Below are positions 41,200 to 59,893 of a DNA stretch of 64,000 nucleotides, in pieces. The notes below the pieces were generated by a model that ran no database searches, was not told the origin of the DNA, and saw nothing but the letters and a program-made list of their open reading frames with translations. The position numbers and the translations under genes are program-made. Within the stretch, counting starts at the first letter, position 1; the number at the start of each line of letters is the position of its first letter. The stretch comes from Anaerolineales bacterium (GTDB lineage Bacteria > Chloroflexota > Anaerolineae > Anaerolineales > UBA11579), in contig JAHBVE010000002.1 of assembly GCA_019637675.1 (NCBI GenBank), positions 207,797-271,796 on the forward strand. Direction: 5' to 3'.

Positions 41200-41898
41200 C
41201 TACCACCAACCCCCGTCCACATCCAAGTTCACGCCGTTGACGCCCTTATTCTCGAGCAGGAAGATGGCTGCGTCGGTCACGTCCTTGATTGTCACCAGCT
41301 GCTTGGTCAGCGTGCGGGCGGCCAGCGTTTCCAGCACGCCGGCCGGCTTGTCGGCCCAATACGGGGTCTCGCCCACCACGCCAGGGTGGATGGCGTTGAT
41401 GCGCAGCGGGGACAGCTCAACTGACATGGCGCGCACCAGCGTGCTTACGCCGCCGTTGATGGTCGTCACTGTGGCCGAGCCCGGGTACGGGCGCTCCTTG
41501 GCCATGCCGCCGTACAACAGCACCGCGCCGTCGGCGCGCATCTCGGGCAGCAGGGCGTGCACCACTTCCGGGTAGCCTACCAGCTTAAGGGTCACCAACT
41601 CGACCGCCTGGTCAATGTCATAGGTCTTGACGCTGTTCTCGTCGCGCGCGATCGAAACCAGCACCAGGTATTGCACATCCTTCACGCCGGCCAGCGCCTT
41701 GCCGATCTCCTTGGGCTTGCTCAGGTCAAAGTTGATGCCCACCGCGCCATTGCCGATCTCCTCGGCCACCTTCTGGGCGCGGCCGGCCTCGCGGCCGGTC
41801 ACCACCACGGGGTGGCCCTTGCCGGCGTAATGCACGGCCACGGCCTTGCCCAGTTCAGACGTGCCGCCAACAACAACCACAGTGCCTTTATCAGCCAT
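41200..41898 (-). CDS. SDR-family oxidoreductase
   Basis: 232 aa. Rossmann motif VVVGGTSELGKAV, plus NAIHPGVV. Confidence 0.75.
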   Translation of the reverse strand: MADKGTVVVVGGTSELGKAVAVHYAGKGHPVVVTGREAGRAQKVAEEIGNGAVGINFDLSKPKEIGKALAGVKDVQYLVLVSIARDENSVKTYDIDQAVELVTLKLVGYPEVVHALLPEMRADGAVLLYGGMAKERPYPGSATVTTINGGVSTLVRAMSVELSPLRINAIHPGVVGETPYWADKPAGVLETLAARTLTKQLVTIKDVTDAAIFLLENKGVNGVNLDVDGGWW

Positions 41899-41918
41899 TA
41901 TGTTCTCCTCGCCTGTGC

Positions 41919-42824
41919 CTATTTCTCGCTCTTGAGCTGCTCTTCAAAATAATCCCAGTCGCGGCCGAAGCGGTAGGCATGCCGCGAGGGGGATTGCGGC
42001 GCCGAGGTTTCCAGCCACTGCACCGTGGTATTCGTCTTGTTCTTGAAACCGTGCACGCAGCCCACACCCGCCCAGGCCACATCGCCGGGCTTCAGGGTAA
42101 AGGTCTGGTTGTCGAACCAGGCCTCCACCTCGCCATTGAGGATCATGTAGGTTTCCTCGAACGGGTGATCGTGGCTGCCGGCGCCGCCGCCGGGGATGTA
42201 CTTGACCATGAACATGGTATGCAAATGGGCGCCCAGGTCGCTGTCCACCATCATCTTGACGGTGATGCCGGTGTACACCAGCAGCGCCGTGCGCATGCTG
42301 CCGGAAACCGCCAGCAGCTCCTGCGACTGCTTGCCCGGGTCCATATGCTCGTCAGTGATATTGCCGAAGAAGCGCGTGCGCGTGTCACGCGGGTTGACCC
42401 GGATCGGCTCACCCACCTGGGCCACCCGCCCCTTGACCGGGAACACATCGCCGTCCTTCCACAGCCGCGGCTGCGGGGCCAGCATCTCGACCCAGCGCAC
42501 CTTGCTGGCGCCGCGGTTCTTGTAACCGTGCGCCGCGCCCACATGCATCAGGCCGTAGTCGCCCTTCTCCAAGGCGAACGCGCCGTCGCCCGTCTCGCAG
42601 ATCAGCTCCCCGTCCAATACATATACGCTCTCTTCGAACGTGTGCAGATGCGTGTCCACCTGGCCGCCGGGCTCCAGCTCACAAATATTGAACTCCTGGT
42701 GCACCGAGCCCGACTCGCCGTTCACAATAGACCAGCGGCTGAACCCCTTGCTGATGCCTTCAAAGGCTTTGGGCAGCATAAACTCGGCCTGGTCTGCCGT
42801 GCGTACTAAGAAGCGTTCCTTCAT
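41919..42824 (-). CDS. Bicupin metalloprotein (paralogue of 56793..57641)
   Basis: ORF 41919..42956. Start at ATG 42824 (AGGAGA SD). The two cupin motif sets are GGQVDTHLHTFEESVYVLDG...GAAHGYKN and GAGSHDHPFEETYMILNG...GCVHGFKN. Confidence 0.75.
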   Translation of the reverse strand: MKERFLVRTADQAEFMLPKAFEGISKGFSRWSIVNGESGSVHQEFNICELEPGGQVDTHLHTFEESVYVLDGELICETGDGAFALEKGDYGLMHVGAAHGYKNRGASKVRWVEMLAPQPRLWKDGDVFPVKGRVAQVGEPIRVNPRDTRTRFFGNITDEHMDPGKQSQELLAVSGSMRTALLVYTGITVKMMVDSDLGAHLHTMFMVKYIPGGGAGSHDHPFEETYMILNGEVEAWFDNQTFTLKPGDVAWAGVGCVHGFKNKTNTTVQWLETSAPQSPSRHAYRFGRDWDYFEEQLKSEK

Positions 42825-42867
42825 GTATTCTCCTGAACTGCAGGCGGCTGCCCGCGGCAATGGTTGG

Positions 42868-45321
42868 CTAGATGGCGGGCAATTTGAAGCGAGAGCGGCG
42901 CAGCACGTAATCACGCGCGTCGTAGACCATATTCTTGACCGCGTTGAGGTCCACATTCACCAATTGGCCGCCGCGCTTGAGGATCTTGCCGGCCACCATC
43001 ACGGTGTCCACGTTGCTGGTGTCCATACCCCAAACCACCGCCGCCGCCGGATCATTGATGGGCGTGACGTTGATCTTGTTGGTGGTCAGCATCAGGATGT
43101 CGGCATCCTTGCCGGGGGTCAGCGTACCGATCTTATGGTCCAGGCCGTTGGCGCGTGCGCCTTCGATGGTGGCGTACTCCAGCACCTCCTGATCCGTGAT
43201 CAGGTTGGATTTGACATCTTCGCCCGCCAGGCGGCGCTCATGGAGCAGGCTATGCTGCAACGAAATGACCGAGCGCATCTGCGTGAACATATCGCCCGGT
43301 ACGTTGGTCTCCACGTCCACGCTCAGGCTGGGCTTGAGCCCGCGGTCGAGGAACTTTTGCGTGGGCGGCATGCCGTGGCCCATCATCATCTCCACCGGCG
43401 CGGCCAGCGAGACCGAGCCGCCCGAATCGACGATCATCTGGATCTCGGTGTCGTTGAGCGTAGTGCAGTGAATGTAGGTGGTGTCCGGCCCCATCAGCTC
43501 TGGCCCCTTGCGGCCAAACTCCTCCACCTTGCGGCGTTGGCCGAATGTGCCAACGCCGACGTGGGTGGTGATGCGGGCGTCCACCGAGCGCGCCATGTTC
43601 CAATGCGAGCGAGTAATCTCAAAGTCAGTGAACTCCGGCCCGGCCGCCGCCAGCGCATAGGTCAGCAGTTGGTCCTTGCTGGTGAAGTGCGCCCGCGCCG
43701 CCCGCACGAACCAGCCGGGCTGCTTGGGCTCATACTTACCCCACCACGGGAAGCCGTAGGCGAACACGCCGCGCATATTGGAATCGCGCAGGGCCTGCAC
43801 CACCGCGTCGGTGTGCTCCGGCGAAGCCTGAATATGCGACCAGTCGAGTAGCGTAGTGATGCCGGCGTCAATAGCGCCGAAGGCGCTCACGATGTTGCCG
43901 GCGTAGGCGTCTTGCGGGCGGTACGCGCGGCCCAGGCGGCCCAGCACGAAGGTGATATAGCTGCTGCGGCCTTCCAGCGGCACATCCGTGCCGATGTTGC
44001 GCAACAGGCCTTCCCAAATATGGCGGTGCGTATCCACAAACCCAGGCATCACGATCATGCCCTTGGCATTCACCACCTGAGTGGTGCCGTTGGCCTGGAT
44101 ATTCTCGCCCACCTGCACGATCTTGCTGCCCTCGATGAGCACATCGCCGATAAGCAACGTGCCGATCTTCGGATCGAGCGAGATCACGGTGCCGCCTTTG
44201 AGCAGCATTTGCTGGCCGGGCTGCAAGCCGCTTTCTACTGTGGCGGGCGGCTCAACGAATACATTGGCCAGCGCATAGTCCTTGTTACGTTCACGGCGGG
44301 CCGTGAAGACGCGGCGCAGCTTCTTCCAGTTCTCCTTGATAAGCATGCGCAGGTCGTGCACTTGATACAGCACCAGACCAATAATGGTCAGGCCGCCCAT
44401 CACGATCGGGTCATTCAGCCAGCTGCTAGTGATGATGCGCAGTGAGAACATGTTGCTGATCAGCGCCAGGAACAGGCTCACCGCCAGCGCGCCGGTGAAG
44501 TGGCCCACGCCGCCGGCCAGGCTGGTGCCGCCCAAGCCGGCCGCGGCAATGCTGGTGAGCGCGAAGGTGCTGCCCGCACGGGAGTCACCCACGCCCACTT
44601 GCACCGCCAAAAAGAACGAGGCCACTGCGGCCAGCAAGCCCGAGAGCACCAGACCGCGCACCTGCACCCACTTGGTGCGGATGCCCAGGCGGCGGCCGGA
44701 GCGCACGTCATGCCCGGTGGCACGCACACGCAGGCCGCCGGCGGAGCGGCGCAGCCAGATATCCCACAAAATGGCCACGACCAGCACAACAATGAAGGCG
44801 ACCGGCACCATGCCCACTTTTGTGCGCAGGGCCGCCAGCAGCGAGCTGTTGATCGAGCCGGAGGCCACCGGGCGCAGTACCAGGGCTACGCCCTCCAGAA
44901 TGCTAAGGGTGGCCAGCGTGGCAATGATCGAGGGCAGCTTGACCCAGCGCACCAACAGCGCATTCAACAGGCCCACCAGCACACCGCCCAGCAGGATCAG
45001 ACCGGCGCCGATCATCACGGCTTGCGGAGTGGCGTCATTGGTAATGATGAACGAGGCCGCCACGATGCTGAACGACATCACGGCGCCGACAGAAATATCC
45101 AGATAGCCCACTAGCATGGCGTTCACCTGGGCCATGGCAACGATCGCCAACGGCAGGGTGGCCTGCAGCAGGTTGCTCAGGTTGTATTCGGAAAGAAACG
45201 CGCTGCTCTTGTTACCCGAATATGCGCCCAGCGTATAGATCATGAGCAGGAGCAGCATCAGGGGATACCACTCCTGGATGCGGATGGCGGCCTTCTTGAG
45301 CCGCTCCTTGTTCCGGTTCAT
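42868..45321 (-). CDS. Fusion protein: CUT2-type (RbsC/AraH-like) ABC permease (aa 1-~330) fused to a TRZ/ATZ-type amidohydrolase (aa ~375-817)
   Basis: A single uninterrupted 817-aa ORF. The N-terminal part is a polytopic permease (LLQATLPLAIVAMAQVNAMLVGYLDISVGAVMSF...). A ~45-aa basic linker (LIKENWKKLRRVFTARRERNKDY) follows. The amidohydrolase part has MPGFVDTHRHIWEG (HxH) and IGTLTPGKDADILML. Confidence 0.8.
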   Translation of the reverse strand: MNRNKERLKKAAIRIQEWYPLMLLLLMIYTLGAYSGNKSSAFLSEYNLSNLLQATLPLAIVAMAQVNAMLVGYLDISVGAVMSFSIVAASFIITNDATPQAVMIGAGLILLGGVLVGLLNALLVRWVKLPSIIATLATLSILEGVALVLRPVASGSINSSLLAALRTKVGMVPVAFIVVLVVAILWDIWLRRSAGGLRVRATGHDVRSGRRLGIRTKWVQVRGLVLSGLLAAVASFFLAVQVGVGDSRAGSTFALTSIAAAGLGGTSLAGGVGHFTGALAVSLFLALISNMFSLRIITSSWLNDPIVMGGLTIIGLVLYQVHDLRMLIKENWKKLRRVFTARRERNKDYALANVFVEPPATVESGLQPGQQMLLKGGTVISLDPKIGTLLIGDVLIEGSKIVQVGENIQANGTTQVVNAKGMIVMPGFVDTHRHIWEGLLRNIGTDVPLEGRSSYITFVLGRLGRAYRPQDAYAGNIVSAFGAIDAGITTLLDWSHIQASPEHTDAVVQALRDSNMRGVFAYGFPWWGKYEPKQPGWFVRAARAHFTSKDQLLTYALAAAGPEFTDFEITRSHWNMARSVDARITTHVGVGTFGQRRKVEEFGRKGPELMGPDTTYIHCTTLNDTEIQMIVDSGGSVSLAAPVEMMMGHGMPPTQKFLDRGLKPSLSVDVETNVPGDMFTQMRSVISLQHSLLHERRLAGEDVKSNLITDQEVLEYATIEGARANGLDHKIGTLTPGKDADILMLTTNKINVTPINDPAAAVVWGMDTSNVDTVMVAGKILKRGGQLVNVDLNAVKNMVYDARDYVLRRSRFKLPAI

Positions 45322-46890
45322 CTAATCCTCTCTTCCGCCGAACGCAAACTGATCTTCCACGTTGCCGATCTTGGCGCCGCGCACCATGGCGTCAATGATC
45401 GTGCGCTCGCTCAAGTGCTCCTGCGGAATGTCGTGCACGATCTGCCCGCGTGAGATCACGAACACGCGGTTGCACAGGCTCGCCAGCTCAATAGGATCGC
45501 TAGATTTCACCACCACGGCCGCGCCCTGCGCCGCCTTGGTGTGCAAAGCTTCATAGATGTCAAAACGGGCCGCCACGTCTACGCCCTGCGTAGGCTCGTC
45601 AGCCAGAATGACATTGACGTTATCGCGTAGGAAGGGGCGCGCCATCACGACCTTCTGCTGGTTCCCGCCGGAGAGGAAGCTCACCGGCATATCCAGTGAC
45701 GGCGTGCGCAGCTTGAGCTGCTGGCCCATCGCCCCCACGGCTTCGCGCTCGCGGCGCGGCATCAGCCAGCCCAGGCGGGTGAACTTCTGCAGCGCCTGCA
45801 GCGACGCGTTGGTAATCGCGCCGAGCACAAGGAACAGGGCATCCCGCTTGCGGTCACCCGCCAGCAGCATAATGCCTGAGTTGAGCGCGCCGGTGGGCGA
45901 TGTCAGGTTGACGTGCTTATCAAGCACCTGCACCTGCCCACCCTTGGGTGGGATGGCGCCACACAGCGTCCAGAACAGGTCGCCCTGGCCGTTGCCTTCG
46001 ACGCCGGCAATGCCGATCACTTCGCCGCGGCGCACACTGAAGCTCACCGGGCCGAAGTATTCGCCGTGCAGGTCGGTTACTTTCAGCACGGTCTCGGTTT
46101 CATCCGTAATTTCCAACCGGGTCGGGAAGGCTGATTCCAGCGGGCGGCCGATCATCAGCTCCACGATTTCTTTCTCGGTTATCTTGTCTGCATCGTAAGT
46201 GCCCTGGTTCTGGCCATCCCGCAAAACCGTAATGCGGTCAGCCAGACCCAGCACCTCAGGTAGACGGTGACTTACATACACCACAGCCACACCGCGCTCA
46301 GTATGTTCTTTGATCGTGCGCTGCAGCCATTCCACTTCGGAGGGACCCATGGCCGTCGTGGGTTCATCCAGCAGCAGCACCTTAGGGTCAGACAGCAAAG
46401 CCTTGGCTACTTCCAGTAGCTGGCGCTCCGCCAGGGCCAATGAGCCGATCGGAGCTTCAGCAAAAATGTCATCCAACTCAAAACGGGCCAGAATTTGAAT
46501 GGCCCAGTCTTTCAATCGCCAATAAAGGGAAGGGCGGGCGTCTTTCGACGCGGATAAGTACAGGTTTTCGGCCACGGTCATGCCAGCCACTTGCGAGATG
46601 TCCTGATAGGCCATCCCCAGGCCGAGCTCGCGCGCCTTGGCGGGCGAATCCGTGGTGAGCGGCTTGCCCATGATGTGCACAGTGCCTTCGTCCTGCTCCA
46701 CAAAGCCGCTGGCAATGCCCAGCAACGTGGATTTGCCCGAGCCGTTCTCGCCGACCACGGCGTGAACTTCCCCAGGCAAAACTTGCAGGCTCATGCCCTG
46801 GAGGGCTTGCACCGTGCCGTAGCGTTTGGAAACTCCCAGCAGCGAGAGCGCGTAGCTCTCGCTGCTGGGGTTCTGATTCTTGTCAGTCAC
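45322..46890 (-). CDS. Sugar-type (CUT2) ABC transporter ATPase with duplicated NBDs
   Basis: 522 aa. Walker A is GENGSGKST, the second-domain signature is LSGGNQQKV, and the stop abuts the next start. Confidence 0.88.
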   Translation of the reverse strand: MTDKNQNPSSESYALSLLGVSKRYGTVQALQGMSLQVLPGEVHAVVGENGSGKSTLLGIASGFVEQDEGTVHIMGKPLTTDSPAKARELGLGMAYQDISQVAGMTVAENLYLSASKDARPSLYWRLKDWAIQILARFELDDIFAEAPIGSLALAERQLLEVAKALLSDPKVLLLDEPTTAMGPSEVEWLQRTIKEHTERGVAVVYVSHRLPEVLGLADRITVLRDGQNQGTYDADKITEKEIVELMIGRPLESAFPTRLEITDETETVLKVTDLHGEYFGPVSFSVRRGEVIGIAGVEGNGQGDLFWTLCGAIPPKGGQVQVLDKHVNLTSPTGALNSGIMLLAGDRKRDALFLVLGAITNASLQALQKFTRLGWLMPRREREAVGAMGQQLKLRTPSLDMPVSFLSGGNQQKVVMARPFLRDNVNVILADEPTQGVDVAARFDIYEALHTKAAQGAAVVVKSSDPIELASLCNRVFVISRGQIVHDIPQEHLSERTIIDAMVRGAKIGNVEDQFAFGGRED

Positions 46891-46939: not shown

Positions 46940-48202
46940 TTAGGGGTACATCGCCCGCACGACATCATGCGGAACCATGGAGGAGATGGAAGCATCGTCC
47001 GGCAGGTCAGGGTAGCAGTGGCTCTCATTGACCGGCTGGATATACGGCGGGATCACGATGCTGTTCGGCACGTCGTAGCCGTTCAGGTGCATCATGGCCG
47101 CAGTCAGGGCGATGCGGGACTGGTAGTTACCACCCGAGCCGAAGAAGATCTTGAACTCATCCGGCTGGCCCATATCAACCCATTCGCAGAACAGGACGGT
47201 CTCGTCCGTGCGCAGGGTCAGCACCAGGTTCACCGGCAGGCCGGCGGCCTCGTAAGCGCTCAAACCACCCATGAAGGAGCCGGCAGCTTCGTAGCTTACA
47301 CCCGCCAGATCGGGGTGGGCGCTCAGGAAGCCAGACATGGCCTCGAAGGTACCCTCACGGGTCCAGAAGGTGTCAGCAACACCAACCAGCTCCAGGCCGG
47401 AACCCAGCTCAGGCTGCTCGCAGCTCTGCCAGTAGGCAGACAGCGGGTTGCCAGGGGTACCACCCAGGAAGGCCACCTTGCCGGTGCCGACTTCCTCGTT
47501 CAAGATGCGGGCAAATTCCTGGCCCAGCAGACATACATCCTCAGAGATCGAGGAGAAATAGGCGCTGCCATCACCCAACACACCGTAGGAGTGGGTTACG
47601 TAGATCACGCCAGCGTCAGTGGCCTCTTGCACCACCGGCAGCAGCGCGTCACCCGCATCCGGGAAACCAACGATGATGTCAACATCCTGGGCGATCAAGC
47701 CGCGGATGTCAGCAATGGCTTGCTGGGTGTCGAACATGGCGGTGGTGTAGATGATGCGGCCGATCTCAGGGTAGGTCAGGGCCTGCAGCACCATTTCCAT
47801 GTGGGTCACTTCACGCCACAGGTTCTCACCAAAACCGTCAGCCAGAGCCACGGTGATGGGGCCGCCGGTGCCGGTGTCACACACTTTCTCGCGCCAGCAT
47901 TCCAGAGCCTTGGCTGCCATCTCATCGCTCACGGGCAGGCCGGCGCGGTACATGGCCGCCAGCACAACCTCGTTCACCTGAGAGGCATCCGACACACCCA
48001 TCGTCTTCATCAAGACTTCAGGGTCGGCGTCGAAAATTTCCTCGGAGCCACCAGCCTCACCCGTGGGCTCATCGCCACCATCAGTAGACGGCGCCGAGGT
48101 TGCCGGAGCGGCAGTAGCGCTCGCACCACCGCCACAGGCTGCCAACACCATTGCCAACATGGCAATGAGGAAGGCGATCGTTTGCAGTTTGCTAAGTTTC
48201 AT
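46940..48202 (-). CDS. ABC transporter substrate-binding lipoprotein (type I periplasmic-binding fold, long form)
   Basis: 420 aa. Lipobox MVLAACGGG, a low-complexity linker, then alternating beta-alpha PBP1-like segments (ITVALADGFGEN...DIIVGFPDAG...KVAFLGGTPGNP). Confidence 0.7.
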   Translation of the reverse strand: MKLSKLQTIAFLIAMLAMVLAACGGGASATAAPATSAPSTDGGDEPTGEAGGSEEIFDADPEVLMKTMGVSDASQVNEVVLAAMYRAGLPVSDEMAAKALECWREKVCDTGTGGPITVALADGFGENLWREVTHMEMVLQALTYPEIGRIIYTTAMFDTQQAIADIRGLIAQDVDIIVGFPDAGDALLPVVQEATDAGVIYVTHSYGVLGDGSAYFSSISEDVCLLGQEFARILNEEVGTGKVAFLGGTPGNPLSAYWQSCEQPELGSGLELVGVADTFWTREGTFEAMSGFLSAHPDLAGVSYEAAGSFMGGLSAYEAAGLPVNLVLTLRTDETVLFCEWVDMGQPDEFKIFFGSGGNYQSRIALTAAMMHLNGYDVPNSIVIPPYIQPVNESHCYPDLPDDASISSMVPHDVVRAMYP

Positions 48203-49345: not shown

Positions 49346-49409
49346 TCTGCCCTTAGGTACAGTACTCCAGTGAAAATGAGGCGAGGGTCATTCTTTTTCT
49401 GTGCAAAGC

Positions 49410-50928: not shown

Positions 50929-50955
50929 AAAAGAGCGCCTTACGGCGCCCTTTTG
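50929..50955. terminator. Bidirectional terminator (amidohydrolase / ALDH convergent)
   Basis: AAAAGAGCGCC-TTAC-GGCGCCCTTTT. Confidence 0.6.
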
Positions 50956-52488: not shown

Positions 52489-52494
52489 AGGGAA

Positions 52495-53895: not shown

Positions 53896-54897
53896 CTAGG
53901 CAGCGCCGCACAGGGTCTTGGCCATCTCGAACACCGTATCCGGCGTCGGGACGGTGAGGTCTTCCAACACCGGCGAGAACGGAATGGGCACGTCCATAGC
54001 GCCCATGCGTTTCACCGGCGCATCCAGACAATAGAAAGCGCCATCGGCGATCACCGAAGCCAGCTCGGCCGTGACGCCATAACGTTCATAGCCTTCATCC
54101 ACCACGATCACGCGGCTGGTCTTCTTGGCTGAGTTGATCAGCGCATCTTTGTCCAACGGGAAGGTGCAGCGCGGGTCGACGATCTCAGCGCTGATGCCGA
54201 TCTCGGCCAGTTTGTCCGCCGCCGCTAACGAGACCTGCACCATGCTGCTGGTAGCCACAATGGTGATGTCGCTGCCCTCGCGCTTCACATCCGCCACACC
54301 TAGCGGGATGATGTATTCCTCTTCAGGCACTTCGCCTTTCAACTGGTACATCATCTTGTCTTCGAAGAAGACCACCGGGTTTTCGTCGCGGATGGCGCTC
54401 TTGAGCAAACCCTTGGCGTCATACGGGGTGGATGGGATGACAACTTTGATACCCGGTACATGGCTGAACCAGGCATGCAGCGACTGCGAGTGCTGGGCCG
54501 CTGAGCGCCGCGTGGCGCCCATCGTTGTACGCAGCACCATGGGCACTTTGAGCTTGCCGCCCGACATGTAGTGGATCTTGGCGGCCTGGTTAACCATCTG
54601 GTCCATGATCAGCGTGCTGAAATCGCCGAACATGATATCCACCACAGGCCGCATGCCAGTCATGGCCGCGCCGACACCCAAGCCGGTAATGCCAGGTTCA
54701 GAAATGGGCGAGTCGATCACACGCTCCGGCCCGAACTCATCCACCAGCCCTTTGAGCACCTTGAAGGCGGTGCCGGCTTCGGCCACGTCCTCGCCCATCA
54801 CATACACAGTCGGGTCGCGGCGCAGCTCTTCGGCCAGGGCTTCTTTAATGGCCTGGCCCATCGTGATCACGCGGCCGTTGCCGTTAGGCGTAGACAT
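53896..54897 (-). CDS. TPP-dependent dehydrogenase E1 beta subunit
   Basis: ORF 53896..54933. Start at ATG 54897 (MSTPNGNGRVITMGQAIKEAL). Transketolase-like pyrimidine-binding and C-terminal domains. Confidence 0.88.
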   Translation of the reverse strand: MSTPNGNGRVITMGQAIKEALAEELRRDPTVYVMGEDVAEAGTAFKVLKGLVDEFGPERVIDSPISEPGITGLGVGAAMTGMRPVVDIMFGDFSTLIMDQMVNQAAKIHYMSGGKLKVPMVLRTTMGATRRSAAQHSQSLHAWFSHVPGIKVVIPSTPYDAKGLLKSAIRDENPVVFFEDKMMYQLKGEVPEEEYIIPLGVADVKREGSDITIVATSSMVQVSLAAADKLAEIGISAEIVDPRCTFPLDKDALINSAKKTSRVIVVDEGYERYGVTAELASVIADGAFYCLDAPVKRMGAMDVPIPFSPVLEDLTVPTPDTVFEMAKTLCGAA

Positions 54898-55903
54898 TCG
54901 TATCCACCTCGCTGGGGTCCGGGTACGGCGCATTCAGGGCGAACTCGGCGCCGCGCGCCACTTCGCTCTTCACATCCGCCTGGATGTGGTCGAGCACGCT
55001 CTGGTCAGACAATTTCTGCCCAATGATCCAGTCCGCCAGGATCGTGATCGGGTCACGCTGCTGCCATTCGAGTTCTTCTTCTTTTGGGCGGTAGTAGGCC
55101 CGATCAATATCACCGACATGGTGACCGTGGTAGCGGTAAGTATTGCACACCAAGAAAGCTGGCCCCTCGCCCTTGCGAGCGCGCTCTACCAGCCGCTTGG
55201 CCACTTCATTCACCACGCGGATGTCCTGGCCGTCGATCTCCTCGGTGTAGATGCCGAAGGCTTCGGCGCGGCCGGTCAGCGTACCCGCGGCGGTCTCGTT
55301 GTAGTGGGTGTACTCGTTGTACATGTTGTTCTCGCACACAAAGATCACCGGCAGCTTCCACAACTGAGCCATGTTCATGGTTTCGTACAGCAAGCCTTGG
55401 CCGAGCGCGCCTTCACCAAAGAAGCACACCGCCACCTGGCCGGTGCCTAACCGCTTGGCGCTGAAGGCCGCCCCGGCGGCGATGCCGGCGCTGCCGCCCA
55501 CGATGGCGTTGGCGCCCAGGTTGCCGTTGGCCTGATCGGCGATGTGCATGGAACCGCCCTTGCCGCCGCAGTAGCCGGCGGCTTTGCCGAGCAGCTCAGC
55601 GAACATGATGTCGACTGCCGCGCCTTTGGCGATGCAATGGCCGTGGCCGCGGTGCGTGCTGGTAATGTAATCGTCTGAGTTGAGCGCTTCGCATACGCCC
55701 ACAGCGATGGCTTCTTCACCAATATACAGGTGCGCCAACCCTGGCATCTTCGCCGAGGTGTAGAGCTCATTTACCTTGTCTTCAAATTCACGGATGCGCA
55801 CCATCTGCTCATACATCTGCAGCAGGTCCTCCACATCCTCTTTGCCAGCCGGCTTGCCCGCAGGCTTGGTGCTCTTGGCCTTGGTGCCTTTTGCTTTCGC
55901 CAT
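54884..55903 (-). CDS. TPP-dependent dehydrogenase E1 alpha subunit
   Basis: 339 aa. TPP motif GEGALGQGLLYETMNMAQLWKLPVIFVCENN. YRYHGHHVGD is also present. Confidence 0.88.
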   Translation of the reverse strand: MAKAKGTKAKSTKPAGKPAGKEDVEDLLQMYEQMVRIREFEDKVNELYTSAKMPGLAHLYIGEEAIAVGVCEALNSDDYITSTHRGHGHCIAKGAAVDIMFAELLGKAAGYCGGKGGSMHIADQANGNLGANAIVGGSAGIAAGAAFSAKRLGTGQVAVCFFGEGALGQGLLYETMNMAQLWKLPVIFVCENNMYNEYTHYNETAAGTLTGRAEAFGIYTEEIDGQDIRVVNEVAKRLVERARKGEGPAFLVCNTYRYHGHHVGDIDRAYYRPKEEELEWQQRDPITILADWIIGQKLSDQSVLDHIQADVKSEVARGAEFALNAPYPDPSEVDTNVYA

Positions 55904-56778
55904 TACTTCGCTCCCATGTGCTTCACCGCGTCGATCAAGATCGCAAAGTCTTTCTCGCCCCAGCCTTTTTCTTGAGCAAAGGCCAGCACGCGTTGGGCTG
56001 TCTCGGTTGTCGGTAGCGCTACGCCCAGCTCAGCGCCCAGTTCCAAGGCCAGCTTAATGTCCTTCTGCATCATATCCACTGGATACCAGGCCACATCGGG
56101 CAGGTTCACCAGCTGCGGCGCCTTGTACTTGACTAGCGGCGAGCCGATCACGCTGTTGGTCAGTACTTCGATGGCGGTAGTGCGCGGGATGCCTGCCGCC
56201 TCGGCCAGCAAAATAGACTCGGCCAGCGCCAAGACTTGCACACCTACGCTCAAATTCGTTGCCACCTTCATGGAAACGGCGAGGCCGCTGGCACCGACAT
56301 AGGTCGCCTTGGAGCCGATCGCCAGCAGCACCGGCTCGGCAGCCTTGAAAGCAGCCTCGTCGCCGCCCACCATCATGGTGAGCTGGCCGGCTTCCAAAGT
56401 TGCAATGCTGCCCGAGACCGGGCAGTCCAGCATGGGCGCGCCGGCTGCAGCGGCCTTAGCTGCCAGCTCGCGGCTGGCGGCGGGGCTGACCGTGCTCATC
56501 TCCATCCAGGTCTTGCCCTGGCCGAGCGCAGCCAGCACGCCATCCGGCCCTTCAGCGATCTGGCGCAGCGCAGCCGTGTCGCTGACGATGCTAAAAACGA
56601 TCTCAGACGCTTCGGTCACTGCCCGCGGCGTATCGCCCCAGGCCATGCCAGCATCCAACAAGTCTTGTGCTTTGGCCTTGGTGCGGTTGTAGCCGGTCAC
56701 CTTGTGCCCAGCTGCCATCAGCCGCGTCACCATGCGGCTGCCCATCACCCCTAAGCCAATAAATCCAACATTTGCCAT
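55903..56778 (-). CDS. 3-hydroxyisobutyrate / tartronate-semialdehyde reductase family (HIBADH-like) NAD(P) oxidoreductase
   Basis: 291 aa. Starts MANVGFIGLGVMGSRM. TAATG overlap with the E1 alpha start. Confidence 0.8.
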   Translation of the reverse strand: MANVGFIGLGVMGSRMVTRLMAAGHKVTGYNRTKAKAQDLLDAGMAWGDTPRAVTEASEIVFSIVSDTAALRQIAEGPDGVLAALGQGKTWMEMSTVSPAASRELAAKAAAAGAPMLDCPVSGSIATLEAGQLTMMVGGDEAAFKAAEPVLLAIGSKATYVGASGLAVSMKVATNLSVGVQVLALAESILLAEAAGIPRTTAIEVLTNSVIGSPLVKYKAPQLVNLPDVAWYPVDMMQKDIKLALELGAELGVALPTTETAQRVLAFAQEKGWGEKDFAILIDAVKHMGAK

Positions 56779-56792: not shown

Positions 56793-57641
56793 CTAGCCGG
56801 CGTACTTGCCAGCCCAGTCTCTTTCAAAGCGGAAGGCTTCTTTGGCGGGCGGCAGCGGAGCCTGGGTTTCGATCCAGCGAACCGGCTCGTCACCTACCTG
56901 CTCAAAGCTGTGAATGCAGCCCACACTGGTCCAGATCAGATCGCTCGGCCCCAGTTCATAGGTCTTGCCGTCCGCGATCGCCTTCACGCGTCCACTGACA
57001 ATGTAATACGACTCTTCAAACGTATGGTCATGCGCATCGATCTTGGCGCCTGGCTGGTATTGAATAAGAAACAGCGACTGGTGCGTAGCGCCGGACGAGC
57101 GGTCTACGAACATCTTGATCGCCACACCTGTGGTGGCATTGAAGCCCTCCATCTGGCCGGGTTCGCCAGGCTTGGGCAGTTGCGCCTCGTCGAAGTGGCT
57201 CACCATCGTCTCCGCGGCCTGCGCCGGGTTGGGCGCCTGGCCGCTAGCAGCCAACTCGCCGGGAACGAAGAAAGTGTCGGTTCCATCCGTACGCGGCTGC
57301 GGCGCCTGCATCTCGACCCAGCGGGCCGGCACACTGCCCTTGTTCTGCCAGGCGTGCGCAACACCGGTCGGGATCAGGCCATAGTGGCCCGGCCCCAGTT
57401 CGTAAGCGGCCTCGCCAATCTGGCAGATCAGGCTGCCTTCCAAGATATAGAAGCTCTCTTCGAACGCATGCAGGTGATGGCTGATGTGGCCGCCCGGCTC
57501 CAGCTGGCTGATGCCGGTGCCCATGTGCAACGAGCCCATGCCGGGCTCCACGTAGGTTTTGCGCGCATATCCCGCGCTCTTGCCCTCATAGCCCGCAGGC
57601 ACTGCGCTGGGCAACTGGTCAAGGTGAGTGGTGTGATGCAT
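56793..57641 (-). CDS. Bicupin metalloprotein (paralogue of 41919..42824)
   Basis: ORF 56793..57737. Start at ATG 57641. Motifs GGHISHHLHAFEESFYILEG...GVAHAWQN and AKIDAHDHTFEESYYIVSG...GCIHSFEQ. It shares RWVEMxAPQPR and RFxRDW with the paralogue. Confidence 0.75.
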   Translation of the reverse strand: MHHTTHLDQLPSAVPAGYEGKSAGYARKTYVEPGMGSLHMGTGISQLEPGGHISHHLHAFEESFYILEGSLICQIGEAAYELGPGHYGLIPTGVAHAWQNKGSVPARWVEMQAPQPRTDGTDTFFVPGELAASGQAPNPAQAAETMVSHFDEAQLPKPGEPGQMEGFNATTGVAIKMFVDRSSGATHQSLFLIQYQPGAKIDAHDHTFEESYYIVSGRVKAIADGKTYELGPSDLIWTSVGCIHSFEQVGDEPVRWIETQAPLPPAKEAFRFERDWAGKYAG

Positions 57642-57660: not shown

Positions 57661-59001
57661 CTACTGGTCGTCAGGCAGGCCGGCGCCGCCGTAGTTGACC
57701 CCGGTGTAGTCAAGGTTGCGGTGCGACTGGGTGTCACGCGTGGTGGGCAGCCAGCCGTTGGTGGTGAAGTAGCGCTTGCCCGCCACCATCAACTCCTCGG
57801 CCGGGAAGCGCGTGATCACTTCCACGCCGTCCTTGGTCACCACCATCTGCTCTTCAATGCGGGCAGCCGACCAGCCATCGCTGGCCGGCCAATACGTTTC
57901 GAGGGCGAAGACCATGCCCTCCTCAATTTCCTGCGGGCTGTCGAACGAGACCAGGCGGCTGAACACCGGCTTCTCCCAGATACCTAGACCCACGCCGTGG
58001 CCATATTGCAATGCGAAGCAGGATTCTTCGTTCGGGAAGCCGAACTCTTGCGCCTTGGGCCACAACTTGACCACGTCCGCGGTGGTCACACCGGGGCGGA
58101 TGGCATCGATGGCCGCGTCCAGATAATAGCGACAGCGTTTGTACGCATCCACCTGGGCCTGTGAAGCTGAGCCGATGGCGAAGGTGCGGTAATAGCAGGT
58201 GCGATAGCCCATGTAGGAGTGCAAGATATCGTAGAAGGCCGGGTCGCCTGGGCGCATCACGCGGTCACTAAAGATATGCGGATGCGGGCTGCAGCGCTCG
58301 CCGGAGATGGCGTTGACGCCCTCCACATGCTCAGAACCCAGTTCATACAGCACCTTATTGACCAGTGCTACGGCTTCACTTTCCTTGACGCCGGGCTTCA
58401 TAAAGCGATACAGCTCTTCATAGGCCGCGTCCACCATCATGCAGGCCATGTTGAGCAAGGTGACTTCGTCTTGGGTCTTGATGACGCGCGCATCCAGCAT
58501 TAGCTGCTGGCCGTCGACCACATTGATGCCCTCTTTTTGCAGGGCGAACAGCACGGGCGGCTCAACCATATCCACGCCAACCGGCTCGTTCTGCAGGCCG
58601 CGCTCCTCGAGTTCAATGCGGATCTTGCGGGCCACGTCCTCCGCCCGCATGGCGCCTGGCGGCATGGCGCCGCGCAGGGTGGAAATGCCGGCGCGGGAGC
58701 GTCCCTCGCCCAGCCAGGGGGCGTAGAGTGTGTGGTGCTTGGCCGCTGAGCCAAAATCCCAGTTGATCGGCTCATCATCCTGCGGCAGCAGGCAGAAGCG
58801 CCCCAGCTTATCGATGGCCCAGGTGCCAATGGTGGTATTGGTGATATAGCGAATGTTGTTCATGTCGAAGCACAGCAAAGCGCCGATGTTCGACTCTTTG
58901 AGCTTCGCCTTGATGCGAGCCAGACGTTCCGTGCGCAACCGTTCGAAATCAACACGTTGCTCCCAATCCACACCCATTGTTCCGTACGTTCGCAAATCCA
59001 T
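57661..59001 (-). CDS. M24-family (creatinase/prolidase fold) metallohydrolase, long form
   Basis: 446 aa. N-terminal LLCFDMNNIRYITNTTIG. Pita-bread C-domain with HGVGLGIWE, FALETYW and IEEQMVVT. Confidence 0.75.
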   Translation of the reverse strand: MDLRTYGTMGVDWEQRVDFERLRTERLARIKAKLKESNIGALLCFDMNNIRYITNTTIGTWAIDKLGRFCLLPQDDEPINWDFGSAAKHHTLYAPWLGEGRSRAGISTLRGAMPPGAMRAEDVARKIRIELEERGLQNEPVGVDMVEPPVLFALQKEGINVVDGQQLMLDARVIKTQDEVTLLNMACMMVDAAYEELYRFMKPGVKESEAVALVNKVLYELGSEHVEGVNAISGERCSPHPHIFSDRVMRPGDPAFYDILHSYMGYRTCYYRTFAIGSASQAQVDAYKRCRYYLDAAIDAIRPGVTTADVVKLWPKAQEFGFPNEESCFALQYGHGVGLGIWEKPVFSRLVSFDSPQEIEEGMVFALETYWPASDGWSAARIEEQMVVTKDGVEVITRFPAEELMVAGKRYFTTNGWLPTTRDTQSHRNLDYTGVNYGGAGLPDDQ

Positions 59002-59098
59002 GTTGCCATCCTTTCAAACGGAAACTACAGAAATGACTGCTGGCGTTGCATCATGCCCGCACGGCCAAAATTCTCACCGGCGAGTTATGTTTCGTGTA

Positions 59099-59160
59099 AT
59101 TGAACGCATTATAGTAGCAAACACCGCCCTGTCAACCAGGATTGAACGCACTGAACACTA
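59099..59160. promoter_or_regulatory. Repeated TGAAC(G/A)C boxes in the divergent M24 / XRE-regulator control region
   Basis: ATTGAACGCA occurs at 59099-59108 and 59141-59150, and CTGAACACTA at 59151-59160. TGAACACTA recurs identically at 49517-49525. Confidence 0.4.
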
Positions 59161-59212
59161 TTTGGCGTGGCATATTTACCCTTCCTGTATTAGACTGTAC
59201 AAATCTCTAGCC

Positions 59213-59893
59213 ATGTCTGACTTGATTGAACAAAATCCCAGCGAAATTGGTCGCAAACTATGGGCGGCCCGCCAAAAACACAAGATGAGCCTGCGAGACC
59301 TGGCTCGCGCCGCCGAGATCAGCGCCAGCATGCTGAGCCAGATCGAAACCGGCAAGGCTTTTCCTTCCGTACGCTCACTTTACAAGATCGCCGCCGCGCT
59401 GGGTGTCTCGGTGGATTATTTCTTCCCCGCCCAGGAGGAGAACGGCCCCGCGGCCAATGGCGTGGTCAACAGCACCGAGCTGACGGCCAGCCAGATGCGC
59501 GAAGCCCTGCTCACCAACGAGAGCGGCGAGGGCATGGTCAGCTTCCCCAACACCCACAAAGCGCCGATCGTGCACGCCGCGGCCCGCCCCACTCTCGAGC
59601 TCAATAGCGGTATCACCTGGGCGCGCTTAACCGCCATAGCCGAGACCGACACCGAATTCCTCGAGATCCAATATGCTCCAGGCGCAGAATCTGGCAAGAA
59701 CATGTCCAGCCACTCCGGCCGCGAGTTCGGTCTGGTGCTCGAAGGCCAGCTTATGGTCGAGCTGGGCTTCGAGACCTACACCCTCGGCACGGGTGACAGC
59801 ATCATCTTTGATTCCAGTACACCTCACCGTTTGACAAACAATGGCAACACCTCCATGCGAGCCTTGTGGGTGGTGCTCAACCCTCAATCCTAG
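59213..59893 (+). CDS. XRE-family HTH plus cupin-domain transcriptional regulator
   Basis: ORF 58853..59893. Start at ATG 59213 (MSDLIEQNPSEIGRKLWAARQKHKMSLRDLARAAEISASMLSQIETGK). C-terminal cupin GREFGLVLEGQL...GDSIIFDSSTPHRLTN. Confidence 0.82.
   Translation: MSDLIEQNPSEIGRKLWAARQKHKMSLRDLARAAEISASMLSQIETGKAFPSVRSLYKIAAALGVSVDYFFPAQEENGPAANGVVNSTELTASQMREALLTNESGEGMVSFPNTHKAPIVHAAARPTLELNSGITWARLTAIAETDTEFLEIQYAPGAESGKNMSSHSGREFGLVLEGQLMVELGFETYTLGTGDSIIFDSSTPHRLTNNGNTSMRALWVVLNPQS

Follow-up and report, generated by a model that had tools for sequence, protein, structure and literature searches.

A cross-phylum enzyme core and a Chloroflexota-specific uptake module in a catabolic locus of Anaerolineales

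Which compound is taken up and degraded by a locus whose gene combination resembles no textbook pathway, and do its genes belong together? The question is raised by positions 41200-59893 of a 64-kb stretch (the window) of an Anaerolineales (Chloroflexota) MAG, where the ORF list and Pfam give 15 intact genes (Table 1). The genes listed in the original prediction were all found with the strand, place and order given there; Pfam scores for all ORFs greatly exceed the gathering score, and chance is not an issue for the gene assignments. Several of the longest ORFs run into their neighbours, and starts were reset by the gene calls of close relatives, giving the lengths in Table 1 for E1 beta, both bicupins and the XRE-cupin protein.

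Layout of the locus

Two operons lie on the minus strand, with successive gaps of 120, 49, 0, 43 and 20 nt in operon 1 and of 6, 27, −14, −1, 14 and 19 nt in operon 2 (E1 beta start re-read). A promoter-like site and two terminator-like hairpins fit this two-operon reading, and a 12-nt inverted repeat (49419-49448) lies inside the putative divergent control region, the largest intergenic gap of the locus. Catalytic motifs are intact in the translations, namely 'ETDK' and 'DHRVLDG' in the lipoyl E2, 'GEG...ENN' in E1 alpha, and 'ELGGN' and 'GQSC' in the ALDH. A Phaeobacter LpdA query found no match in the whole window, in agreement with the predicted absence of E3. The GC content of the locus (0.60-0.64) resembles that of the surrounding genome, and related Anaerolineales MAGs have the same locus with the same flanks; hence the earlier term 'island' is not supported in the sense of a recent insertion.

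Table 1. Features of the locus, with the genes of each operon in 5′ to 3′ order.
Feature	Position	Strand	Evidence or remark
ABC permease, 340 aa (operon 1, gene 1)	48323..49345	-	BPD_transp_2 102.8 bits
Substrate-binding lipoprotein, 420 aa (operon 1)	46940..48202	-	Peripla_BP_4 71 bits
ABC ATPase, two nucleotide-binding domains, 522 aa (operon 1)	45322..46890	-	two ABC_tran stretches
ABC permease-PRK08204 amidohydrolase fusion, 817 aa (operon 1)	42868..45321	-	BPD_transp_2 48-314; Amidohydro_1 423-781
Bicupin-1, about 301 aa (operon 1)	41919..42824	-	two Cupin_2 stretches, 97.4 bits
SDR, 232 aa (operon 1)	41200..41898	-	adh_short_C2 80.6 bits; adh_short 66.3 bits
Second PRK08204-type amidohydrolase, 432 aa (divergent)	49607..50905	+	Amidohydro_1 98.2 bits
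M24 'pita-bread' hydrolase, 446 aa (operon 2, gene 1)	57661..59001	-	Peptidase_M24 128 bits
Bicupin-2, 282 aa (operon 2)	56793..57641	-	two Cupin_2 stretches, 102 bits; both domains have metal motifs
Beta-hydroxyacid dehydrogenase or semialdehyde reductase (HIBADH-like), 291 aa (operon 2)	55903..56778	-	NAD_binding_2 + NAD_binding_11
TPP-dependent E1 alpha, 339 aa (operon 2)	54884..55903	-	E1_dh 246 bits
E1 beta, 333 aa (operon 2)	53896..54897	-	Transket_pyr + Transketolase_C
Lipoyl E2 acyltransferase, 457 aa (operon 2)	52495..53868	-	Biotin_lipoyl, E3_binding, 2-oxoacid_dh (243 bits)
ALDH, 496 aa (operon 2, final gene)	50998..52488	-	Aldedh 478.9 bits
XRE-cupin (PuuR-like) regulator, about 226 aa	59213..59893	+	HTH_3 + Cupin_2; divergent from M24
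Promoter-like site, operon 2	59108..59135	-	TTGACA-16-TATAAT, 12/12; 107 nt 5′ of M24 start codon
Terminator-like hairpin, operon 1 end	41148..41175	-	12-bp stem, 8 GC pairs; 25 nt past SDR stop
Terminator-like hairpin	50935-50948	+	3′ of second amidohydrolase
Putative divergent control region, operon 1 / second amidohydrolase	49346..49606	.	261 nt

A cross-phylum core and a Chloroflexota accessory layer

The genes, earlier treated as a 14-gene set, are not one indivisible unit; the locus consists of two layers, a five-gene core found across phyla and an uptake and hydrolysis module specific to Chloroflexota. The core comprises the HIBADH-like, E1 alpha, E1 beta, M24 and lipoyl E2 genes, most commonly in the order HIBADH-E1a-E1b-M24-E2 and sometimes with an ALDH added, and its carriers, from at least six phyla, are Chloroflexota, Actinomycetota, Acidobacteriota, Binatia/delta-proteobacteria, Bacillota and Roseobacters. 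Among the 53 genome loci in which M24 is flanked by 5 kb or more on each side, both E1 genes are present at 47, the HIBADH-like gene at 46, E2 at 37 and ALDH at 15. M24 identity is 73-98% over 80 genome loci of several phyla, and the median identity of E1 beta across genome loci is 79%. In Paenarthrobacter, Rhodococcus and Streptomyces M24 is still linked to TPP-dependent E1/E2 genes, the E1 there being a non-orthologous fused alpha/beta protein (34-37% identical).

The accessory layer, that is, the ribose-type ABC importer with its fusion protein, the second amidohydrolase, the two bicupins, the SDR and the XRE-cupin regulator, was seen only in Chloroflexota, and in most phyla the core stands without bicupin or amidohydrolase. 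The accessory families accompany the core in rearranged order in L006, L011, L017 and L018, and in other Chloroflexi (L104, L105, L106) the whole set is one operon. Thus the two operons, rather than never being conserved together, which the original prediction had named as the outcome that would speak against it, are co-inherited. The SDR, which reaches no NCBIfam equivalog cut-off, lies directly 3′ of a bicupin-1-type gene in L104 and L106, where the reading frames overlap, and in L018 (61% identical). The XRE-cupin protein, with 77 bits to the PuuR model (cut-off 211), is paired with M24 in Chloroflexi and also in Paenarthrobacter, Rhodococcus and Streptomyces (33-36% identity).

Core enzymes and their closest known systems

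The view of the locus as a regulated system of uptake and catabolism, ending in a lipoamide-dependent E1/E2 pair that should yield an acyl-CoA, is supported. As in the PDH, BCKDH and AcoABC(L) complexes, the E1 encoded here is heteromeric (alpha/beta) and TPP-dependent, and the E2 combines lipoyl, E3-binding and acyltransferase domains. Unlike in PDH-type complexes, however, the E1 alpha of the locus (TIGR03182, 344.5 against a cut-off of 393.85) and E2 (TIGR01349, 336 against 445) miss the PDH equivalog cut-offs, and the operon embeds an M24 hydrolase and a strictly linked beta-hydroxyacid dehydrogenase; we know of no described 2-oxoacid or acetoin complex that includes either. An acetoin/2,3-butanediol-type cleavage system, or a housekeeping pyruvate dehydrogenase with unrelated neighbours, would agree with the E1 alpha, which among solved structures comes nearest to human PDH E1 alpha (203 bits), with the E1 beta, which passes the PDH E1-beta subfamily model PRK09212 (403 against 321), and with the window lacking E3. 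We consider it very unlikely, because besides the missed cut-offs the AcoC model covers the lipoyl end only (79.7 bits against 307), most phyla have M24 placed between the E1 beta and E2 genes, under GntR or XRE regulators and with importers adjoining, L106 has a separate adjoining SucA/SucB pair, and acoR, acoX and butanediol dehydrogenase were none of them seen. Moreover, the comparison of the missing E3 with acetoin-type complexes carries no weight, since lpdA (E3) adjoins the homologous genes in Phaeobacter and Paenarthrobacter, and many acetoin operons carry acoL. Clusters with an added lpdA or ALDH occur in Phaeobacter, Tritonibacter and Paenarthrobacter.

M24 shares with DddP, DoeA/EutD and creatinase the pita-bread fold, a creatinase/prolidase-like N-terminal domain and four of five metal ligands, whereas its scores to these families (120, 62 and about 30 bits, respectively) are far under their cut-offs, its gene context differs, and an invariant Cys replaces the second metal-binding Asp (invariant residues D258, C269, H335, E368 and E383). 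EutD forms a complex with the next enzyme of its pathway, a precedent for tight coupling. Over its full length M24 matches DddP best, among curated families as well as structures, a DMSP_lyase Pfam model hits bicupin-2 (28.2 bits), and homologues occur in Roseobacters (55-58% identity), all of which would suit a DMSP/acrylate-type route with M24 as DddP-like lyase and the bicupin as cupin DMSP lyase. Such a route is nevertheless extremely improbable, given the DddP cut-off of 600, an alignment of 83 bits to the nearest structure (DddP 4s00), the Cys, carriers that are chiefly soil, groundwater and sludge bacteria, and no acrylate-CoA genes.

The best equivalog of the HIBADH-like protein is tartronate semialdehyde reductase (193 against 340.75), and its nearest structures are 3pdu, 3doj and 3pef, which are glyoxylate/succinic-semialdehyde reductases. 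Among NCBIfam models, the ALDH matches lactaldehyde dehydrogenase best (494.7 bits against 650), then the SafD and PhnY types. RidA, an imine/enamine deaminase, adjoins M24 on one Paenarthrobacter plasmid and is encoded about 3 kb upstream on the other, which would fit the conversion of an imine or enamine to a 2-oxo acid. Assignments to acetoin, PDH, DddP, ectoine, creatinine, ureide and triazine systems all stayed below curated cut-offs, as did the curated equivalog models for all proteins of the locus, and full-text literature searching found no description of this gene set. The earlier overall interpretation is partly supported: it holds for the type of locus and its mismatch with textbook pathways, and is unsupported or in need of revision as to the single unit, the E3 argument and the substrate class.

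Candidate substrates

The gene content of related loci suggests that the substrate may contain an aromatic or hydroxyquinol-type ring, which the original prediction had not considered. Bicupin homologues of other phyla (65-68% identity) belong to a bicupin/HpaB/flavin-reductase triad; in L016 a single operon unites the core with a bicupin, HpaB, flavin reductase and an intradiol dioxygenase, and the 3′ end of L104 encodes a VOC protein and an intradiol dioxygenase. In C. necator N-1 and Sinorhizobium, PRK08204 homologues adjoin genes for ring-cleavage dioxygenases and maleylacetate reductase. The alpha/beta hydrolase with the most frequent link to the core has its closest match in 2,6-dihydroxypseudooxynicotine hydrolase, a C-C hydrolase (2jbw, E = 6e-34). 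Resorcinol and hydroxyquinol routes (gra/tsd genes) use an HpaB-type two-component hydroxylase, intradiol dioxygenase and maleylacetate reductase. The related loci resemble them in having HpaB, flavin reductase, intradiol dioxygenase and Amidohydro_2 beside bicupin or core, whereas the window holds none of these genes and neither a monooxygenase nor a maleylacetate reductase, and the route as described has no place for bicupins, M24 or E1/E2.

Our preferred but tentative reading, which we hold with less than even confidence, is that an aromatic or N-heteroaromatic compound would be imported, hydrolysed and cleaved, and that M24 and then E1/E2 would convert the product to an acyl-CoA; we infer every chemical step, whereas gene content, intact catalytic motifs, co-inheritance and the distribution in two layers are observed. 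The lipoprotein would bind the substituted ring compound for import, and the permease-tethered (cytoplasmic) amidohydrolase and its free paralogue might replace ring amino or similar leaving groups by hydroxyl. The SDR and bicupins may oxidise and then cleave the ring or a ring-derived enediol or beta-dicarbonyl, and M24 would act on the fission product by hydrolysing a C-N bond in an amide, enamide, lactam or amidine group to give a 2-oxo acid or acyloin. E1/E2, with an E3 encoded elsewhere, could form acyl-CoA from either, 2-oxo acid decarboxylation and acyloin cleavage not being discriminated by the sequence, and an aldehyde or semialdehyde co-product would be oxidised by the ALDH or reduced by the HIBADH-like enzyme.

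The transporter speaks against an aromatic substrate, as it is a sugar-type (CUT2) system. As in CUT2 importers, one Peripla_BP_4 protein is combined with two BPD_transp_2 permeases and a single ATPase that has two nucleotide-binding domains and matches best the AraG, XylG and RbsA types of NCBIfam. Unlike in these importers, the second permease bears a 450-aa C-terminal enzyme domain, no equivalog cut-off is reached, and the binding lipoprotein (lipobox LAAC, then a Gly/Ala/Ser/Thr-rich linker) is only weakly similar to sugar-binding proteins of the PDB (≤41 bits). The permease-amidohydrolase fusion is a conserved family: its best 120 homologues (60-100% identical) are all two-domain proteins, 118 of them 809-842 aa long and the others 720 aa (a partial entry) and 792 aa.

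Together with the sugar-type binding proteins or LacI regulator of Roseobacter clusters and one Streptomyces cluster, the CUT2 importer suggests that a sugar- or cyclitol-derived substrate would fit at least equally well. A polyol-like compound might be imported and oxidised by SDRs to a keto-sugar, the transketolase-like E1 and E2 would cleave the alpha-hydroxyketone in acetoin fashion to acyl-CoA and an aldehyde, the ALDH or HIBADH-like enzyme would remove the aldehyde, and M24 and the amidohydrolases any N-substituents. In agreement with this, the Phaeobacter M24-E1-E2-ALDH genes adjoin a sugar-type ABC system, SDRs and ThuA, a LacI regulator and binding protein adjoin the genes in Streptomyces YIM 121038, the HIBADH family takes in L-threonate, tartronate-semialdehyde and sulfolactaldehyde enzymes, lactaldehyde dehydrogenase is the best match of the ALDH, and aldehyde-releasing cleavage would fit the strict linkage of an aldehyde-handling enzyme. 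Catabolism of such a sugar-, amino-sugar- or cyclitol-derived compound is nonetheless rather unlikely in our judgement: the binding protein resembles sugar binders weakly, the enzymes typical of sugar routes (kinase, isomerase, aldolase) are absent from the locus, related loci hold the ring-cleavage genes, and most core loci have Liv-type importers and GntR/FCD regulators. Because the commonest version of the core has a Liv-type amino-acid/amide importer, the core may also act on a small aliphatic N-compound that has nothing to do with aromatics.

The amidohydrolases also bear on the aromatic reading. Like TrzN, AtzA/AtzB and the 8-oxoguanine and SAH deaminases of COG0402, they are (beta/alpha)8 metal hydrolases; the fused domain has HxH, His(beta5), His(beta6) and Asp(beta8) and clears NCBIfam PRK08204 (503 bits against 391), a 'hypothetical protein' subfamily with no member named for a function there, and the second enzyme stays slightly below (366 bits). 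Unlike the deaminases they resemble, both lack the HxxE Glu, and the second has Gln for the metal-binding beta5 His in all orthologues examined, which makes this a subfamily trait and not decay. Both features count against the preferred reading, and the 'amide or N-containing' substrate suggested earlier remains a prediction from enzyme families.

If PRK08204 enzymes deaminated aminophenols to hydroquinone or hydroxyquinol and the remaining enzymes handled ring fission, 4-aminophenol-type xenobiotics or drug residues (paracetamol, sulfonamide breakdown products) could be the substrate. The C. necator N-1 neighbourhood, where the dioxygenase is of the intradiol type, is consistent with this, engineered or contaminated habitats are the source of several of the closest relatives, and on the Paenarthrobacter sp. 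R1 sulfonamide plasmid, where the sad cluster is located (PMC10873849), an M24/HIBADH/SDR/LpdA/RidA/XRE block adjoins sadA-type monooxygenase genes, YceI and the SulR flavin reductase. That adjacency, however, falls within a transposon-rich region, and the M24-block genes go unmentioned in PMC10873849. Moreover, hundreds of MAGs from soil and groundwater, belonging to many phyla, share the core at >73% conservation, which argues for a natural, widespread substrate and leaves a xenobiotic one improbable.

The bicupins, 42% identical to each other, have been weighed against ureide enzymes. Bicupin-1 has HxH...E...H motifs in both halves (THLHTFEE/GAAHGY and SHDHPFEE/GCVHGF), and bicupin-2 belongs to a family of 1032 homologues; its AF2 model (pLDDT 88) gave only generic bicupins in Foldseek (OxdC, YxaG, salicylate 1,2-dioxygenase, ureidoglycine aminohydrolase-like; 12-18% identity), a fold search that does not discriminate among dioxygenase, decarboxylase and hydrolase. 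In a variant purine/ureide (allantoin-like) route, deamination of a purine-like base would fall to the amidohydrolases, the bicupins would take the part of ureidoglycine aminohydrolase, M24 would free urea in the manner of creatinase, and glyoxylate would pass to the TPP enzyme and a glyoxylate/tartronate-semialdehyde reductase. Both bicupins weakly match ureidoglycine aminohydrolase, the fold search shows structural similarity to DR1152, EF2996, YlbA and 4e2q, tartronate-semialdehyde and glyoxylate reductases are closest to the HIBADH-like enzyme, and the amidohydrolases are distant relatives of guanine and 8-oxoguanine deaminases. Even so, there is very little likelihood of this route: scores are far under the cut-offs (25-33 bits against 200-445, besides the 193 against 340.75), the locus has no allantoinase, allantoicase, ureidoglycolate lyase, glyoxylate carboligase or glycerate kinase, most phyla have the core without bicupin or amidohydrolase, and the bicupins hold full metal sites in both cupin domains, which ureidoglycine aminohydrolase is not known to do.

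Nicotinate fermentation may be cited as a precedent for the preferred reading: there an enamidase opens the ring, and after it acts 2-(hydroxymethyl)glutarate dehydrogenase, a member of the HIBADH family. The structure of this dehydrogenase, 3cky, is among the structural matches of the HIBADH-like protein.

Locus layout and genomic setting

ORF listing and Pfam/NCBIfam scans returned the gene content, strands and order that the original prediction had read from the DNA, namely two minus-strand operons and one divergent gene with an XRE-cupin regulator at the far end (see table), and its statement that no E3 accompanies E1 and E2 holds for the entire 64-kb window, which contains no lipoamide dehydrogenase gene. 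With starts corrected by gene calls in relatives, the gaps in operon 2 are 6, 27, −14, −1, 14 and 19 nt, and the transcription units are framed by a perfect promoter-like match and two hairpins; the M24/XRE intergenic region showed no inverted repeat. The translations show intact catalytic motifs in E1 alpha, E2, ALDH and the dehydrogenase. The locus is not a recent insertion in this genome, because its GC content (0.60–0.64) is like that of the rest of the window and because the locus and its YfhO-containing flank are common to related Anaerolineales MAGs; the window M24 is 100% identical to an Anaerolineales MAG protein at NCBI.

The tRNA-Gln gene lies 38 nt past the XRE-cupin gene. In related MAGs (locus L004), Pfam-less ORFs stand beside the YfhO gene on the corresponding side and are likened by position alone to the large ORFs that flank the locus here. 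A low-GC segment (0.46–0.47, against ∼0.60 elsewhere) ends at the tRNA-Gly gene, encodes two membrane glycosyltransferases of PMT_2 type and a Pfam-less protein of 459 aa, and may be an acquired cell-envelope segment.

Features of the locus and of its surroundings in the window
Feature	Position	Strand	Content or remark
Fused ATP-sulfurylase/APS-kinase	2500–4275	+	upstream housekeeping gene
Low-GC segment	4424–9734	+	
tRNA-Gly(CCC)	9941–10013		
Pyruvate kinase	10028–11539	+	upstream housekeeping gene
Large flanking ORF	39909–41099	+	396 aa, no Pfam match
Strong hairpin	41175–41148	−	frames transcription units
Operon 1	49345 to 41200	−	BPD_transp_2 permease, Peripla_BP_4 lipoprotein, two-NBD ABC ATPase, permease-amidohydrolase fusion (817 aa), bicupin, SDR
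Permease-amidohydrolase fusion	42868–45321	−	conserved family
Second amidohydrolase (free paralogue)	49607–50905	+	divergent gene
Hairpin	50935–50948	+	frames transcription units
Operon 2	59001 to 50998	−	M24, bicupin, HIBADH-like, E1 alpha, E1 beta, E2, ALDH
M24	57661–59001	−	
TTGACA-16-TATAAT	59135–59108	−	perfect match; frames transcription units
XRE-cupin regulator	59213–59893	+	divergent from M24
tRNA-Gln(CTG)	59931–60002	+	right edge of locus
Large flanking ORF	60036–61910	+	624 aa, no Pfam match
Large flanking ORF	61907–63016	−	369 aa, no Pfam match

Distribution and linkage of the core

The distribution of the gene set is layered, with a widespread core around M24 and an accessory layer. 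M24 has more than 8000 close homologues in the protein collection, the best 120 being 70–100% identical and those bearing a name all labelled 'Xaa-Pro peptidase' or similar; a representative-library search put the family at 610 clusters at E ≤ 1e-30, mostly fragments. Reference genomes, with one genome per species, hold at least 600 M24-encoding stretches, and our locus comparison covers the best 80 of these matches (73–98% identical), which come from Chloroflexota (Anaerolineae, Ktedonobacteria, Thermoflexus), Actinomycetota (Thermoleophilia, Solirubrobacterales), Acidobacteriota, Binatia and delta-proteobacteria, and Ca. Sysuimicrobiota, and include Alicyclobacillus sp. ALC3 and Thermogemmatispora tikiterensis T81. 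Co-occurrence was counted by tblastn of the window's 15 proteins, because greedy ORF calling in GC-rich loci had picked antisense ORFs (clusters 14, 15 and 17). Flanks of 5 kb or more were available on either side of M24 in 53 loci; E1 alpha and E1 beta are present in 47 of these, the HIBADH-like gene in 46, E2 in 37 and ALDH in 15, with bicupin in 8 and the PRK08204 amidohydrolase in 6. These core genes are co-inherited, usually in the order HIBADH-E1a-E1b-M24-E2, and over all 80 loci the median identity is highest for E1 beta (79%), followed by E1 alpha (68%), the HIBADH-like protein (53%) and E2 (47%). In loci outside Chloroflexi, the core is most often accompanied by a GntR/FCD regulator, a Liv-type ABC importer and an alpha/beta hydrolase, for which the closest solved structure is that of 2,6-dihydroxypseudooxynicotine hydrolase, a C-C hydrolase.

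More distant relatives keep the association in altered form. On Roseobacter plasmids (M24 55–58% identical), M24 is found with E1a, E1b, a lipoyl protein, ALDH and an E2 catalytic domain beside a sugar-type ABC system, and LpdA is added in Phaeobacter. In Paenarthrobacter, Rhodococcus opacus 1CP and Streptomyces, M24 (65–68%) is kept with the HIBADH-like and XRE-cupin genes, E1 is a non-orthologous fused alpha/beta protein accompanied by an E2, and flavin reductase, VOC and RidA genes are often added. The strongest argument that M24 and the TPP-dependent E1/E2 act in one pathway is that their linkage survives a change of E1 type. M24 is as conserved as E1 beta and lies inside the E1/E2 operon, which suggests, at the level of sequence, a physical or kinetic coupling between them; to our knowledge, neither a hydrolase of this family embedded in an E1/E2 operon nor such coupling has been described for 2-oxoacid dehydrogenase complexes. 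The core is testable in cultured carriers, namely Phaeobacter inhibens P92, Tritonibacter mobilis F1926, Paenarthrobacter ureafaciens SD-1, R. opacus 1CP and the Alicyclobacillus and Thermogemmatispora strains.

The accessory genes for bicupin, PRK08204 amidohydrolase, SDR, CUT2 importer and XRE-cupin join the core only in Chloroflexota loci, and their order varies among four of these (L006, L011, L017 and L018). In three lineages at a greater distance, the complete set forms one co-directional operon, ordered E1a, E1b, M24, E2, bicupin, amidohydrolase, permease, binding protein, ATPase, fusion and SDR in the first (L105), with the same families and two bicupins in the second (L106), and closed by genes for a VOC protein and intradiol dioxygenase in the third (L104). 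Thus this neighbourhood check indicates that the two operons, grouped as one island in the original prediction, are co-conserved.

Comparison with known pathways

The prediction had also matched the set to no textbook pathway, and indeed PDH, acetoin, DddP, DoeA, creatinase, ureide and TRZ/ATZ systems each fail a defining test, and no description of the gene set was found in the full-text literature searched. In kind the locus is a known one: it works like a catabolic cluster that has a 2-oxoacid-dehydrogenase-type complex as its final step. We know of no such cluster described with either M24 inside the E1/E2 operon or an ABC permease fused to an amidohydrolase.

Among curated families and solved structures, M24 comes closest to the DMSP lyase DddP (PDB alignment of 83 bits), as a DMSP-type route would have it, but the protein scores 120 bits against a cut-off of 600 with NF043017 and C269, an invariant Cys, occupies the position of the family's second metal-binding Asp, and we assign this route one of the smaller probabilities. 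The other metal ligands D258, H335, E368 and E383 are invariant; C44, C237 and C290 are likewise invariant across phyla. The AF2 model of M24 was poor (pLDDT 53, from an 18-sequence, low-diversity alignment) and was not used. Ectoine hydrolase DoeA/EutD was rejected at 61.7 against 613 with TIGR02993, and the locus, unlike the DoeA/EutD pathway with its doeB, doeC and doeD neighbours, has no deacetylase or transaminase. Creatinase was rejected at 30.5 bits with PDB 7yto and 20.3 against a cut-off of 22 with Creatinase_N, and the sarcosine oxidase and N-methylhydantoinase neighbours of the creatinine route are absent from the window. M24 was also rejected as a phloroglucinol ring-opening enzyme, which belongs to another family, the 'cyclase' family (PMC10470551). 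The M24 family has no function in the current NCBIfam release, and none was found in the full-text literature searched.

E1 alpha has human PDH E1 alpha as its nearest structure and E1 beta passes the PDH E1-beta subfamily PRK09212 (403 versus 321), and both would fit a housekeeping PDH; however, the equivalogs are not reached by E1 alpha (TIGR03182, 344.5 bits versus 393.85), E1 beta (PRK11892, 402.7 versus 454) or E2 (acetyltransferase TIGR01349, 336 versus 445). The model for the AcoC-type E2 of acetoin systems (PRK14875) aligns to nothing but the lipoyl end, at 79.7 bits against a cut-off of 307, and neither the window nor the annotated homologous loci that we inspected showed acoR/acoX or butanediol dehydrogenase genes; an acetoin system or housekeeping PDH is a minor alternative. 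The nearest structures of the HIBADH-like protein are 3pdu, 3doj and 3pef, which we take to be glyoxylate/succinic-semialdehyde reductases; tartronate-semialdehyde reductases and 2-(hydroxymethyl)glutarate dehydrogenase come next. ALDH is closest to lactaldehyde dehydrogenase, under the model cut-off. Valine and pantothenate/pantoate catabolism were dropped, as no methylmalonate-semialdehyde dehydrogenase model is among the ALDH matches listed, E1 is PDH-like, and acyl-CoA dehydrogenase and dimethylmalate dehydrogenase are lacking.

Both bicupins have complete HxH...E...H motifs in each domain. In Foldseek, the confident bicupin model (pLDDT 88) resembles oxalate decarboxylase, YxaG quercetinase, salicylate 1,2-dioxygenase and ureidoglycine-aminohydrolase-like proteins to much the same degree, at 12–18% identity, so that on this predicted fold dioxygenase, decarboxylase and aminohydrolase relatives are not separable. 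The last of these matches would suit a variant of the ureide (allantoin) pathway, to which we again give little weight: ureidoglycine aminohydrolase models score 25–33 bits against 200–445, tartronate-semialdehyde reductase 193 against 340.75, and allantoinase and glyoxylate carboligase genes are absent.

Import, hydrolysis and a proposed route

The importer is a CUT2 (ribose-type) set with a Peripla_BP_4 binding protein, two BPD_transp_2 permeases and a two-NBD ATPase; all substrate-specific equivalogs score under their cut-offs, and in PDB sequence searches neither kind of binding protein had a match that hinted at the ligand. The fusion is not a sequencing artefact, as both domains are present in every one of the best 120 homologues, which reach down to 60% identity (118 are 809–842 aa, the others 792 aa and, in a partial entry, 720 aa). 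Its junction is Arg/Lys-rich, and because of this and of known features of the permease family the enzyme domain is probably cytoplasmic. The architecture suggests that hydrolysis may be coupled to import, which would make it a rare example among ABC importers of transport-coupled hydrolysis. Both amidohydrolases are placed in the NCBIfam subfamily PRK08204, whose model (cut-off 391) the fused copy passes at 503.4, with the free copy just under at 366.4. The fused copy has the complete metal/catalytic set of TRZ/ATZ and COG0402 deaminases (HxH, His(beta5), His(beta6), Asp(beta8)), and the free paralogue keeps HxH, His(beta6) and Asp(beta8), with a conserved Gln in place of the beta5 metal-binding His. 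Nevertheless both lack the HxxE catalytic glutamate of those deaminases, the position reading H/Q-V-G-V/M-G in all copies, and the best TRZ/ATZ/COG0402 equivalogs give 105–155 bits against cut-offs of 444–617. No function is named for PRK08204 in the current NCBIfam release, and none was found in the full-text literature searched.

Clues to the chemistry come from neighbouring genes. Bicupin homologues (65–68% identity) in Acidobacteria and other phyla lie in a compact unit with an HpaB monooxygenase and a flavin reductase; in an Anaerolinea locus (L016), a single operon unites the core with genes for a bicupin, HpaB, flavin reductase and an intradiol dioxygenase; in Cupriavidus necator N-1 and Sinorhizobium, PRK08204 homologues adjoin ring-cleavage dioxygenases, maleylacetate reductase and citryl-CoA lyase; and RidA is beside M24 in one of two Paenarthrobacter plasmids and ∼3 kb upstream in the other. 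Because the HpaB, dioxygenase, maleylacetate reductase and RidA associations point there, we favour a substituted aromatic or N-heteroaromatic ring as substrate, and they point to an N-containing ring-fission product that would be hydrolysed to a 2-oxo acid. Aminophenol-type xenobiotics are given a smaller probability. A hydroxyquinol/resorcinol pathway was rejected for the window, which lacks the two-component hydroxylase, intradiol dioxygenase and maleylacetate reductase, although some of these genes are present in L016 and L104. Against the aromatic reading stand the sugar-type importer of the window, the sugar-type uptake or LacI regulator in Roseobacter and one Streptomyces cluster, and the amino-acid/amide-type importer of most core loci. 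The main rival, a sugar- or cyclitol-derived substrate with acetoin-type cleavage, would account for the sugar-type uptake and not for the ring-cleavage neighbours, and we consider it unlikely. Since importer types differ among loci, the core may take a small intermediate made by different upstream modules.

For the aromatic reading, the substrate would enter through the CUT2 system, the tethered and free PRK08204 enzymes would hydrolytically replace ring substituents, the SDR and bicupins would provide redox steps and C-C cleavage, M24 would hydrolyse a C-N bond to give a 2-oxo acid or acyloin that E1/E2, helped by a housekeeping E3, would turn into an acyl-CoA, and ALDH or the HIBADH-like enzyme would clear an aldehyde or semialdehyde co-product. 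As a whole this route is tentative, and we hold it somewhat short of probable. A bolder and rather unlikely version is that M24 has a new activity as obligatory fourth partner of lipoamide-dependent E1/E2, handing an unstable 2-oxo acid or acyloin, which would come for example from an alpha-keto-lactam or enamide, straight to E1, and that in Chloroflexi the supply is an ABC importer hydrolysing its substrate at the cytoplasmic exit via the permease-tethered amidohydrolase; if true, this would be an unrecognised, widely transferred class of dehydrogenase module. For this widespread unnamed pathway, knowledge of the substrate would give a function to genes that number in the thousands, in bacteria from soil, groundwater, sludge and the sea.

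Two further arrangements were seen. The bicupin/HpaB/flavin-reductase unit occurs without the M24 core in three loci (L100, L101 and L102, ∼10001–13000), once with YceI, and appears to be an independent, uncharacterised module. The sulfonamide-degradation papers make no mention of the M24 block; on the Paenarthrobacter sp. R1 plasmid NZ_CP127116.1 (9229–19464), an XRE/RidA/M24/HIBADH/SDR/LpdA block in a transposon-rich region directly adjoins sulfonamide-degradation genes, namely sadA-type monooxygenases, YceI and the SulR flavin reductase.
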